From: Escherichia coli
GTDB taxonomy: Bacteria; Pseudomonadota; Gammaproteobacteria; Enterobacterales; Enterobacteriaceae
Strand: one strand, 5' to 3'
Length of the DNA stretch: 64,000 nt
Assembly (NCBI RefSeq): GCF_030013205.1
Contig: NZ_CP122648.1
Part shown: piece after piece, positions 8,174 to 11,504 of the stretch
Layout: every line of letters starts with the position of its first letter
Position numbering within the stretch: position 1 is the stretch's first letter
Program-made: the position numbers and the translations under genes
The notes under the pieces: model-generated
The model's input: the letters and a program-made list of their open reading frames with translations, nothing else
Told to the model about the DNA's origin: nothing
The model's database searches: none

Positions 8174-9457
8174 TTAGTCTTTAGCTGTTGCATTTTGTTT
8201 ATGAAACAGTTCACGGAACACCGGATAAATATCATCCTGGTCGCGGATATGCTGCATCGCAAAGTTGTCGAAAGTAGATTGCAGATGCTCATATTCTCGC
8301 CACAGTGTCTGATGAGCGCGACGGGTAATTTCGATATAGCTGTAATAACGAACGACGGGTAATAATTTTTTCGCCAGGATTTCATGGCAAAGCGGAGAGT
8401 CATCGGCCCAGTTATCGCCGTCCGATGCTTGTGCCGCGTAAATATTCCACTGTGCCGGGTTATAACGCTCTTTCACTACCTCATCCATCAGTTTCAGGGC
8501 GCTGGAAACAATGGTGCCGCCAGTTTCCTGCGAGTAGAAAAACTCATGTTCATCGACTTCTTTCGCCTGGGTATGATGGCGGATGTATACGACTTCCACG
8601 TTCTTATATGTTCTGCTGAGGAACAGATACAGCAGAATATAAAAACGCTTAGCCATATCTTTAGTGGACTGATCCATTGAACCGGAAACGTCCATCAGGC
8701 AAAACATCACTGCCTGGCTGGAGGGATCGGGCCGCTTCTCGTAGTTCTTGTAACGTAAATCGAAGGTGTCAATAAAAGGGACGCGTTCAATTTTGGCACG
8801 TAATTCTGCAATTTCTTTGCGCAGACGTTCCTCTTCCAGTAGTTGCGCAGGTTCACTGTTGCTGATGATGGCCAAATTCTCTTCCAGTGCATGAAGTTCC
8901 CGCCGCTTGCCTGCCGTCATGGCTGTGCGTCGCGCCAGTGAGTTCTGCAAGGAACGCACAACGCTGATATTGGCCGGAACGCCGTTAGCGGTATAACCCG
9001 CCCGATGCGTTTTATATTCGGTCAGCTGGCGTTGTTGGTTTTGTTTCAGATTCGGTAAGGCCAGATCTTCAAAGAGCAGATCAAGATACTCATCTTTCGA
9101 GATCTGAAAGACAAATTCATCCTGACCTTCACCATCCTGGCTGGCCTGGCCCTGACCACTGCCGGAACCTCCGCCGCCACCCTGGGGACGTTCAATTCGA
9201 TCGTTCTGGACGAAATGGTCATTGCCCGGATGCACGCGGTGGCGCAGACCGCCACGCCCCTGATGAAACATCGGTTCGCTAATATCTTCCGTGGGAATGG
9301 ATACGGACTCGCCGCTGTCGACGTCAGTCACCGAACGCTTATTAATGGCCTCGGAGATCGACTGTTTAATTTGCGCTTTATAACGGCGTAAAAAACGCTG
9401 GCGATTCACCATGCTTTTGTTTTTGCCGTTCAGACGCCGGTCAATAAACCAGGTCAT
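8174..9457 (-). CDS. yeaH: DUF444 (vWA-like) protein YeaH, 427 aa
   Basis: ORF 8174..9457; Gly-rich low-complexity segment [12 protein letters not shown]; immediately downstream of yeaG. Confidence 0.85.
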
Positions 9458-9569
9458 ATGCCCCCCGTACTACATTTGCCAACTGTATGCTACGCCTGTG
9501 TTGCCGCTTCTCTGGCCCACGGTTCGCTGTCGTTGTAGGCCCGGTAGCATGTGTACCGGGCCAGGGTTG

Positions 9570-11504
9570 TTAAGACGATTTACGTACGCGCAAATACCAT
9601 TCGCACAGTAAACGCACCTGTTTACGGGTGTAGCCTTTTTCCATCATACGGTCGACAAAATCGTCGTGTTTCTTTTGCTCGTCGGTTGACGTTTTGGCGT
9701 TAAACGAAATAACCGGCAACAGCTCCTCGGTATTGGAGAACATTTTCTTCTCAATAACCGTGCGCAGTTTTTCATAGCTGGTCCAGTTCGGATTGCGTCC
9801 GCTGTTATTCGCTCTGGCGCGCAGTACGAAGTTAACAATCTCGTTGCGGAAATCTTTTGGATTACTGATCCCCGCCGGTTTCTCGATTTTCTCCAGCTCG
9901 GCGTTAAGAGACTCGCGGTCAAACAACTGCCCGGTATCCGGATCGCGATACTCCTGATCCTGAATCCAGAAATCCGCGTAGGTAACATAACGGTCGAAAA
10001 TGTTTTGCCCATATTCGGAATAGGATTCAAGGTAGGCCGTCTGGATCTCTTTGCCGATAAACTCGGCATATTTCGGGATCAGATAACCTTTCAGGAACTC
10101 CAGATAGCGTTCTGCCTGCTCTTGCGGGAACTGCTCGCGCTCGATCTGCTGTTCCAGGACGTAGAACAGATGAACCGGGTTTGCCGCCACTTCTACATGA
10201 TCGAAGTTGAACACGCGGGAGAGGATCTTAAACGCAAAACGCGTCGACAGACCGTTCATCCCTTCATCGACACCGGCATAGTCACGATATTCCTGATACG
10301 ACTTGGCTTTGGGATCGGTGTCTTTCAGACTTTCGCCATCATAAACCCGCATCTTTGAATAAATGCTGGAGTTTTCTGGCTCTTTCAGGCGCGAAAGAAT
10401 GGAAAAACGTGACAGAGTTTCCAGCGTGCCAGGGGCGCAGGGGGCGTGAGTCAATTCACTGTGATTAAGCAATTTCTCGTAGATTTTGATCTCTTCGGAA
10501 ATGCGCAAGCAATACGGCACCTTCACGATGTAAACACGGTCGAGGAAGGCTTCGTTGTTTTTGTTATTACGGAAAGTGACCCATTCGGATTCGTTCGAGT
10601 GGGCGAGAATAATCCCGTTGAACGGCAGGGCGGAGATACCTTCCGTCCCGTTGTAGTTACCTTCCTGAGTGGCGGTTAGCAAGGGATGCAGCACTTTAAT
10701 CGGTGCTTTAAACATCTCAACGAATTCCATGATCCCCTGGTTGGCGCGGCACAGTGCACCGGAATAGCTGTAGGCGTCCGGGTCATTCTGCGCGTAGTGT
10801 TCGAGTTTACGAATATCGACTTTCCCAACCAGCGCGGAGATGTCCTGGTTGTTCTCATCACCGGGTTCCGTTTTGGCGATAGCAATTTGTTGCAAAATTG
10901 ACGGCCAGACCTTCACTACCCGGAACTTAGTGATATCGCCACCAAATTCATGTAGGCGTTTTGCCGCCCACGGCGACATGATGGTGCCGAGATAACGGCG
11001 AGGAATGCCATACTCTTTTTCCAGAATCTGCGCATCTTCCTGCGGATTGAAAAGACAGAACGGATGATCGTTGACCGGGCTACGCTCACCGTTGGCGCTC
11101 AATACATAAATCGGTACGAGCTGCATTAATGATTTCAGTCGCTCAGCAAGCGATGATTTACCCCCACCCACAGGCCCCAGCAGATACAGGATTTGTTTCT
11201 TCTCTTCCAGCCCCTGAGCCGCGTGTTTCAGATAAGAGACAATCTGTTCAATCGCGTCTTCCATGCCGTAAAACTCTTCAAACGCCGGATAACGTGCAAT
11301 GACCCGGTTAGAAAAGAGTCGAGAAAGTCTGGGTTCCTGGGCTGTATCGACCATGACAGGCTCACCGATAGCCATCAATAGCCGCTCAGCCGCGTTGGCA
11401 TAAGCACTGCGATCTTGCCGACAAGTGGTAAGAAACTCCTGCAGTGTGAACTCTTCGTCCTTGGCAGCTTCATATCGCTGGCGATAGTGATCGAATATAT
11501 TCAT
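9570..11504 (-). CDS. yeaG: PrkA-family Ser/Thr protein kinase YeaG, 644 aa
   Basis: ORF 9570..11504; Walker A-like GPVGGGKSS. Confidence 0.9.
   Translation of the reverse strand: MNIFDHYRQRYEAAKDEEFTLQEFLTTCRQDRSAYANAAERLLMAIGEPVMVDTAQEPRLSRLFSNRVIARYPAFEEFYGMEDAIEQIVSYLKHAAQGLEEKKQILYLLGPVGGGKSSLAERLKSLMQLVPIYVLSANGERSPVNDHPFCLFNPQEDAQILEKEYGIPRRYLGTIMSPWAAKRLHEFGGDITKFRVVKVWPSILQQIAIAKTEPGDENNQDISALVGKVDIRKLEHYAQNDPDAYSYSGALCRANQGIMEFVEMFKAPIKVLHPLLTATQEGNYNGTEGISALPFNGIILAHSNESEWVTFRNNKNNEAFLDRVYIVKVPYCLRISEEIKIYEKLLNHSELTHAPCAPGTLETLSRFSILSRLKEPENSSIYSKMRVYDGESLKDTDPKAKSYQEYRDYAGVDEGMNGLSTRFAFKILSRVFNFDHVEVAANPVHLFYVLEQQIEREQFPQEQAERYLEFLKGYLIPKYAEFIGKEIQTAYLESYSEYGQNIFDRYVTYADFWIQDQEYRDPDTGQLFDRESLNAELEKIEKPAGISNPKDFRNEIVNFVLRARANNSGRNPNWTSYEKLRTVIEKKMFSNTEELLPVISFNAKTSTDEQKKHDDFVDRMMEKGYTRKQVRLLCEWYLRVRKSS

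Follow-up and report, generated by a model that had tools for sequence, protein, structure and literature searches.

Sequence and structure predictions suggest an AAA+ ATPase with a von Willebrand A partner, rather than a eukaryote-like kinase, in the Escherichia coli yeaG-yeaH operon

The yeaG-yeaH operon of Escherichia coli, found here at positions 8174 to 11504 of a 64,000-nucleotide window (contig NZ_CP122648.1, assembly GCF_030013205.1), can be compared with several described systems. A first comparison is with the PrkA-YhbH-SpoVR proteins of Bacillus and the PrkA of Thermus. All three proteins of the module match the same Pfam families, Thermus PrkA aligns with the YeaG family profile over its full length, and the same residues are invariant. 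The Thermus clade differs in being only ~25-27% identical to YeaG and in not conserving residue K426, while the Bacillus system differs in its sporulation role and its lack of kinase activity (PMC9512850, PMC13001217), and in that ycgB, the E. coli gene of the SpoVR family, is unlinked in E. coli. A second comparison is with the AAA+/von Willebrand A (vWA) pairs RavA-ViaA, NorQ-NorD, CbbQ-CbbO, BchI-BchD and Midasin/Rea1; like MoxR-type AAA+/vWA pairs, yeaG and yeaH are an AAA+ and a vWA gene that are adjacent and co-oriented. YeaG stands apart from these in lying outside the MoxR family, with its nearest P-loop and lid similarity to Lon, ClpX and HslU; in carrying a helical C-terminal extension of ~200 residues that has no structural match; and in having a third conserved partner, SpoVR, that is specific to the YeaG-YeaH module. 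Lon protease shares a helix-plus-Walker-A region with YeaG, the Lon matches covering YeaG residues 74-130 only, but YeaG contains neither the Lon N-domain nor the Lon protease domain. The likeness to Hanks-type kinases is confined to the name and to in vitro phosphorylation reported for E. coli YeaG (PMC8055822), whereas YeaG shows no motif, profile or fold similarity to them.

That we are dealing with the yeaGH stress operon of E. coli is essentially certain. The operon is already known, with an annotation, published regulation and phenotypes, a phosphoproteome and a candidate substrate, and finding it adds nothing new as stated beyond a textbook-level annotation. YeaG, YeaH and YcgB rank among the most conserved bacterial modules, their biochemical activity is still without agreement, and current work, strain-engineering papers included, still models the module as a Hanks-type kinase cascade. 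The initial annotation of this window had likewise described a eukaryote-like Ser/Thr kinase module; this was its only distinctive claim, and it is the one that does not hold up. If YeaG and YeaH are instead an AAA+/vWA pair, phosphoproteomics would be the wrong experiment, and the 'kinase-dead' K426A control would have been misread.

The yeaG gene (9570..11504, minus strand) encodes a protein of 644 residues, named 'protein kinase YeaG' in RefSeq, in which an AAA+ ATPase module is followed by a C-terminal region predicted to be all-helical. YeaG is a member of the PrkA/YeaG family over its full length by curated cut-offs (PF08298 and PF06798; NF011999). The Pfam family AAA_PrkA covers residues 19-380 (E 4e-188, 625 bits) and the PrkA C-terminal family covers residues 382-636 (E 9e-71, 239 bits), against cut-offs of 25 each, and for the NCBIfam equivalog PRK15455 (NF011999), where the cut-off is 576 bits, the score is 1343. 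At residues 110-118 (codons 11151..11177, minus strand) the Walker A P-loop GPVGGGKSS has the GxxxxGK[ST] pattern of AAA+ ATPases in the form G110-PVGGG-K116-S117, can be aligned with the corresponding motifs of Lon, RavA and ClpX, and is the only nucleotide-binding motif that a regular-expression scan found in YeaG. Its residues G110, G113, K116 and S117 are conserved in 48/48 aligned sequences drawn from the YeaG and Thermus clades. The initial annotation had cited this P-loop, which is present, as belonging to a protein kinase; by Pfam and by our alignments it is an AAA+ Walker A and not a kinase glycine loop.

Searching all PDB sequences with a YeaG family profile yielded one full-length relative, Thermus PrkA (9xip, E 5e-275), which is represented in the PDB by 30 chains over three entries (9xip/9xiq/9xir), and no protein kinases. 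The other matches comprised ~30-55 residues at the P-loops of Lon (E 0.0025) and RavA (E 0.0085), and the P-loop of shikimate kinase appeared at chance level (E 0.14). Alignment with hhalign placed YeaG residues 76-127 on Lon 322-373 with a probability of 76-83%, and similarity to RavA was limited to 27-32 residues at the P-loop with a probability of ~40%. The probability was 79-81% against E. coli ClpX, where the alignment is anchored twice and in the right sequence, first at Walker A and then in the lid/sensor-2 region. The second anchor pairs YeaG 358-422 with ClpX 311-375, aligning RLKEPENS with ILKEPKNA and EGMNGLSTR with TGARGLRS, and an alignment to HslU gives the same lid register.

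If this lid alignment holds, the Pfam boundary at residue 382 splits an AAA+ lid, and the residues that are invariant in the 'kinase domain' (K384, Y388, G390, E414, G418, S420 and R422) would belong, with K426, to the ATPase module. On this sequence evidence the AAA+ module of YeaG probably extends to about residue 430, and K426 probably sits in the AAA+ lid, in the sensor-2 helix. K426 is a lysine in the YeaG clade and an aspartate in the Thermus clade, and aspartate occupies this position in 22/50 aligned family members. Within the core, E260, E263, R232 and D322-R323 are invariant or at least 96% conserved, and the Walker B region, read from the alignment by eye, is IMEFVE against the canonical hhhhDE. 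As for the AAA+ clade, published claims (Lon-like; clade III) disagree with the ClpX/HslU lid signal found here.

Published experiments bear on the same site. B. subtilis PrkA binds and hydrolyzes ATP in a Walker-A-dependent manner, with binding through Walker A only (PMC9512850), and B. anthracis PrkA reportedly forms ATP-induced oligomers (PMC13001217), which, like the 30 chains of the Thermus homologue in the PDB, is indirect evidence for a ring. In E. coli, the K116A and R232A substitutions of YeaG abolish complementation (PMC4664914). Together, the alignments and structural models suggest that YeaG is a ring-type ATP motor.

We looked for a kinase domain by motif, profile and fold. A regular-expression scan found none of GxGxxG, VAIK, HRD/[HY]xDxxxxN, DFG and APE anywhere in YeaG. 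No Pfam family of the kinase clan matched either the whole protein at E<=0.01 or residues 378-644 at E<=10, and hhalign of the YeaG C-terminal profile against PKA-C-alpha returned a probability of 0.14%. AlphaFold2 modeled residues 378-644 as an all-helical domain of twelve helices with no beta-sheet (pLDDT 81.8, pTM 0.59). An all-helical domain cannot be squared with the N-lobe of protein kinases, which is rich in beta-strands, and a bilobal, five-stranded arrangement was not seen. The model had no kinase-like or other fold match in fold libraries that lacked the solved Thermus structure. The kinase label thus failed every test run, which suggests, on sequence and model evidence, that YeaG is not a Hanks-type kinase; with motifs, profile and fold match all missing and K426 replaced by aspartate in the Thermus clade, we find no support for the eukaryote-like module of the initial annotation.

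Downstream of yeaG, yeaH (8174..9457, minus strand) encodes a protein of 427 residues belonging to DUF444 (PF04285, E 4e-191, 636 bits against a cut-off of 27). Membership of the YeaH-YhbH family extends over the full length, with 843 bits against a cut-off of 466 for PRK05325.1-3 (NF003708). The AlphaFold2 model (mean pLDDT 86.9) shows a helical N-terminal region, which is conserved, a disordered segment at residues 94-107, a long helical hairpin at 166-224 and an alpha/beta domain at ~236-420. The Gly-rich linker that had been noted in the initial annotation is present at residues 93-103 (codons 9149..9181, minus strand), and residues 94-107 have pLDDT below 50 and are predicted to be disordered. 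In the model, the C-terminal domain (residues ~236-420, 8198..8752, minus strand) has the Rossmann-like alpha/beta fold of vWA domains. It carries a complete metal ion-dependent adhesion site (MIDAS) motif, a predicted metal site formed by D256-V-S258-G-S260 (codons 8678..8692, minus strand) and completed by T315 and D346, as recognized from conservation and spacing. The residues D256, S258, S260, G313, T315 and D346 are invariant in 110 YeaH homologues at ~40% identity, and the motif is spaced in the canonical manner, with intervals of 59 and 31 residues.

The two genes are tightly coupled in their genomic arrangement. yeaG lies directly upstream of yeaH and co-oriented with it in 79/79 gammaproteobacterial loci with enough flank, and the same holds on distant contigs; our contig scan yielded Gammaproteobacteria only, and distant YeaG sequences were gathered by contig look-ups and a second protein search. 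In 51 loci from Vibrionales, Alteromonadales and Aeromonadales a SpoVR/ycgB gene follows directly downstream of yeaH, with a gap of 9-292 bp. ycgB was absent within 6 kb downstream in the 22 Enterobacterales loci that have the full 6-kb flank, and no ycgB-like sequence occurs in the 64-kb window. The three-gene module is thus split in E. coli (bioRxiv 10.1101/072470). The initial annotation was right to place the third partner, ycgB, elsewhere in the genome, as cofitness, synteny and the window itself agree; yeaG, yeaH and ycgB show cofitness in six bacteria (bioRxiv 10.1101/072470), and deletions of yeaG, yeaH or yeaGH give the same phenotype (PMC4664914).

Distant metagenomic contigs carry PrkA-DUF444-SpoVR in four loci, in one of which a further gene separates DUF444 from SpoVR; in a fifth locus (L089) the order is permuted. 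In a single predicted protein of 643 residues (P0179) a complete DUF444 is joined to the initial half of SpoVR; this protein is either a natural fusion that supports a YeaH-YcgB interaction or an artefact of gene calling or a frameshift. YcgB itself matched only its own SpoVR family and no relative of solved structure. Across the gammaproteobacterial loci, identity is 81-99% for YeaG and 62-99% for YeaH; YeaG is 81-90% identical across gammaproteobacterial orders, and the E. coli protein shares 87-90% identity with that of Vibrionaceae or Plesiomonas. In four metagenomic loci YeaG is 66-75% and the adjoining YeaH 39-51% identical, and YeaG of a fifth (L089) is 48% identical. Conservation of YeaG far above that of YeaH is a pattern that fits a multi-interface machine.

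Based on these observations, we propose that YeaG is a ring-forming AAA+ motor with Walker A (K116) as its nucleotide site, in which the AAA+ module would take in the region formerly read as a kinase active site and would be followed by a family-specific all-helical domain. YeaH would act as its partner adaptor, with a vWA/MIDAS domain tethered through the disordered Gly-rich linker to the conserved N-terminal region. By analogy with known AAA+/vWA pairs, the MIDAS site would grip an acidic side chain on YcgB or on a client, and ATP hydrolysis in the YeaG ring would remodel the client, with the published 'metabolic brake' during starvation as the outcome. Protein phosphorylation, if it takes place, would be a side activity or an atypical one and not Hanks-type catalysis. 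That an AAA+ motor and a vWA/MIDAS adaptor work with YcgB to remodel clients is the account we favor, with slightly better than even confidence. A more speculative extension, to which we give somewhat less than even confidence, is that YeaG-YeaH-YcgB is a distinct and very widespread AAA+/vWA machine with no kinase pathway, that K426A disables the lid, that clients are mechanically remodeled or inactivated for metabolic quiescence, and that huge and jumbo phages use the machine to manipulate dormancy of the host.

Several points weigh against this proposal. The model of the YeaG C-terminal region has only moderate global confidence (pTM 0.59), was built on a 27-sequence alignment and starts at residue 378, within the apparent lid. 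The lid sub-alignment taken by itself falls to a probability of 5% for ClpX and 0.5% for HslU, and the lid/sensor-2 match to ClpX is therefore suggestive only. YeaG matches no AAA_3 or MoxR-type Pfam profile, which makes the analogy to MoxR-vWA pairs one of working principle and not of family membership, and we infer a physical YeaG-YeaH interaction as part of the proposal only. Autophosphorylation and casein phosphorylation have been described for E. coli YeaG (Tagourti 2008, as cited in PMC9512850), and E. coli YeaG produced a Phos-tag shift of AceA in vitro with malate (PMC8055822). In the latter assay the shift was seen with malate only, and the reaction used 10 mM ATP for 2 h with near-equal enzyme and substrate (PMC8055822); given such near-stoichiometric enzyme, ATP concentration and duration, the E. 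coli assays do not establish catalysis. The kinase activity reported for E. coli YeaG is unexplained. The initial annotation had called the substrates undefined, which is now only partly so, as one candidate (AceA) and a yeaG-mutant phosphoproteome are already published (PMC8055822). On kinase activity itself the literature is divided, as none was found in the Bacillus orthologues (PMC9512850, PMC13001217) and the reports for E. coli remain.

The most probable alternative is an atypical kinase, in which phosphotransfer would occur at the P-loop/AAA+ site, as in HprK/P, or in a novel helical domain, with substrates brought in by the vWA/MIDAS domain of YeaH. Protein kinases that work through a P-loop, HprK/P among them, are known. 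Such an enzyme would reconcile in vitro phosphorylation (PMC8055822; Tagourti 2008, as cited in PMC9512850) with the missing Hanks domain, and would fit the loss of function of both the AAA+ mutants and K426A (PMC4664914). We nonetheless consider it unlikely, since no kinase activity was detected in two Bacillus orthologues (PMC9512850, PMC13001217), the conditions of the E. coli assay fall short as described above, and the PDB profile search showed no similarity to HprK/P or a P-loop kinase, bar the chance-level shikimate kinase.

Less probable again is the reading put forward for B. subtilis PrkA, an ATP-dependent protease resembling Lon; in E. coli it would degrade regulators in starvation with YeaH as its substrate adaptor. 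B. subtilis PrkA reportedly acts as a slow protease that degrades casein in an ATP-dependent manner (PMC9512850), YeaG resembles Lon around Walker A, and the region after the core contains invariant polar residues, among them S420 and K384. The Lon similarity, however, spans only ~50 residues at the P-loop, no Lon protease domain (Lon_C) was found by sequence or by fold, the invariant residues are better explained as AAA+ lid/sensor-2 positions, and the protease activity of B. anthracis PrkA was lost once a contaminating hydrolase had been removed (PMC13001217).

A genuine Hanks-type Ser/Thr kinase, with a C-terminal active site, K426 as a catalytic residue, enzymes such as AceA as substrates and YeaH and YcgB as accessory signaling proteins, is very improbable: it has the naming in RefSeq, Pfam and most of the E. 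coli literature (PMC4664914, PMC10954441, PMC8055822), the failure of K426A to complement (PMC4664914) and the AceA shift in its favor, but is opposed by the missing motifs, profiles and beta-sheet N-lobe, by the aspartate at K426 in the Thermus clade and the probable place of this residue in a sensor-2 helix, by the inactivity of the Bacillus PrkA proteins as kinases, and by the many phosphosites that rise rather than fall in a yeaG mutant (PMC8055822).

At the level of DNA, this locus carries the same genes as E. coli K-12 yeaG-yeaH (b1783-b1784), with the same 112-bp gap and the same neighbors, mipA and cdgI. It differs by strain-level sequence changes only, and published regulation by NtrC/sigma-54, sigma-S and the small RNA (sRNA) SdsR maps onto the window. 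Both open reading frames are intact and co-oriented, separated by 9458..9569, and the open reading frames, Pfam, NCBIfam and genome matches bear out the gene identities, coordinates, spacing, orientation and operon status given in the initial annotation, an agreement well past what chance would give. A 4-kb region around the genes matches several E. coli chromosomes at 100% identity, in whose annotation yeaG/yeaH are flanked by mipA and cdgI; its best matches, at this same identity, are swine E. coli isolates. The yeaGH region was found in 5425/5426 complete E. coli genomes; some genomes hold two copies, and 2/5430 matches are on plasmids and not on chromosomes.

Induction of yeaGH in stationary phase and in nitrogen starvation, as the initial annotation had it, agrees with published work (PMC4664914, PMC10954441). 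The region 11505..11939, which the initial annotation had singled out for a motif scan, yielded a conserved sigma-54 element and a sigma-S-type -10, but no consensus NtrC sites. The sigma-54 promoter element TGGCATgagagTTGCT (-24/-12, of the GG-N10-GC type; 11608..11623, minus strand) matches the pattern with one mismatch and predicts a transcription start ~93 nt upstream of the yeaG ATG. This agrees with a published reporter of the yeaG 5' untranslated region (5'UTR), which begins at -93 (PMC10954441). In 15 Enterobacterales loci the flanks diverge while TGGCAY-N5-TTGCT is kept upstream of the ATG, at a distance of ~97-129 nt or, in a single locus, 242 nt. Transcription of yeaG is NtrC- and RpoN-dependent (PMC4664914, PMC10954441). 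A scan of 11505..11939 for TGCACC-N5-GGTGCA found no NtrC site at up to three mismatches, and the window-wide count was at chance, so NtrC binding at this promoter rests on published chromatin immunoprecipitation (PMC4664914).

Upstream of yeaG, the sequences of Cedecea, Mangrovibacter and two Enterobacter species resemble one another but not the rest (ACACGCTCATAACAAATAGGACGG...) and lack the sigma-54 element, and the yeaG promoter appears from these sequences to have been replaced in this lineage. About 50 nt further upstream than the sigma-54 element of the window lies the sigma-S-type extended -10 TCTACGCTTAA (11670..11680, minus strand), within the conserved block ATGCCAtCTACGCTTAA of an Enterobacterales alignment (A4). 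It matches the sigma-S -10 consensus, KCTAYRCTTAA. yeaG is known to have an RpoS-dependent promoter (PMC10954441).

SdsR represses yeaG, and its pairing site in the 5'UTR lies at -31..-22 (CCTGTGCTAA; 11526..11535, minus strand; position from PMC10954441). This block is nearly invariant in 19 Enterobacterales sequences (alignment A4), and the yeaG Shine-Dalgarno region AAGGACGG (11511..11518, minus strand) consists of invariant or near-invariant columns, with the block CCTGTGCTAAAAAACGAAAGGACGG that spans both almost invariant. RNAalifold predicted weak pairing of CUGUGCU, the SdsR target, with AGGACGG at the Shine-Dalgarno (-3.9 kcal/mol); all positions are invariant and there is no covariation, so this pairing might be an anti-Shine-Dalgarno element or might be meaningless. 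An apparent GGGAGCC...GGCTCTT stem in the 5'UTR was not recovered by RNAalifold.

Between the genes, a stem-loop of GGCCCGGTA-cacatgc-TACCGGGCC (9538..9562, minus strand) forms a perfect 9-bp hairpin that is part of the centroid fold. It begins 8 nt past the yeaG stop, has no U-tract and was not called by the terminator scan. Eight Enterobacteriaceae retain the hairpin, 3/10 of its pairs showing compensatory changes, and K-12 carries no annotation at its position. Folding of the whole 112-bp spacer was no better than that of shuffled sequences (z -0.43), with only this first hairpin conserved. We consider the hairpin, which resembles a repetitive extragenic palindrome (REP), probably an mRNA-stabilizing or expression-tuning element and not a terminator. 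Ahead of the yeaH ATG, a G-rich, Shine-Dalgarno-like run (9461..9466, minus strand) lies in a block, AGTACGGGGGGCATATG, conserved in Enterobacteriaceae. Five nucleotides past the yeaH stop is a hairpin resembling an intrinsic terminator, with 11 pairs followed by TTTTT (8141..8169, minus strand); sigma-70 promoter and terminator scans were at background overall, and this was the only convincing terminator.

In an sdsR mutant the amounts of the YeaG and YeaH proteins are known to vary together (PMC10954441), which in combination with this anatomy supports a single transcription unit. Transcription starts from sigma-54/NtrC and sigma-S promoters in the 435-bp region shared with mipA and is repressed by SdsR at the 5'UTR, and in our reading the transcript continues through the REP-like hairpin into yeaH and ends at the intrinsic terminator.

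Rfam placed no known RNA family in the yeaGH locus, and its sole match over the gathering score in the window is the ES036 (CssrF) sRNA at 55220..55262 (minus strand; 38.9 bits against 37.6). PADLOC assigned the locus to no defense system. Elsewhere in the window, a sigma-54-like site TGGCACgaaccCTGCA (46557..46572, plus strand) precedes astC by ~75 nt; collinearity with NZ_CP062203.1 identifies astC as the gene that opens astCADBE, the arginine succinyltransferase operon. Mutants of yeaG, yeaH and ycgB are reported to grow better with arginine as nitrogen source (bioRxiv 10.1101/072470).

PrkA-DUF444-SpoVR also occurs in phage-like contigs (L084 at 3051-8662, L085, and L086 at 2892-7735), whose neighboring genes encode a DNA polymerase A, an SNF2 helicase, a PDDEXK nuclease and a phiTE-type phage protein. 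In L084 a 308-residue gene with weak homing-endonuclease-like matches is inserted between DUF444 and SpoVR. The three genes are also present in 595-642 kb uncultured 'huge' phages and in the Ralstonia jumbo phage RsoM2USA (records LR756502.1, LR745206.1, LR756504.1 and MG752970.1), and PrkA, DUF444 and SpoVR each have their own PHROG family of unknown function. The record 'Enterobacter phage LAU1' (MN688132.1, 30.8 kb) contains a yeaH at 93% identity and looks like host DNA in a phage record.

Two YeaG variants, of 910 residues from Salmonella (P0001) and 724 residues from E. coli (P0002), carry two AAA_PrkA stretches, and with them internal duplications or insertions, and may be assembly artefacts or genuine disrupted alleles. 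Within ~8 kb downstream of yeaH in the window, at ~674..8027 by collinearity with locus L001, lie three GGDEF-type genes, cdgI, dgcJ and dgcP, which occupy the position held by ycgB in other gammaproteobacterial orders. The annotation of the closest strain, NZ_CP062203.1, records frameshifts in yeaK and ansA and an internal stop in ydjE, and IS1397 lies between topB and gdhA.

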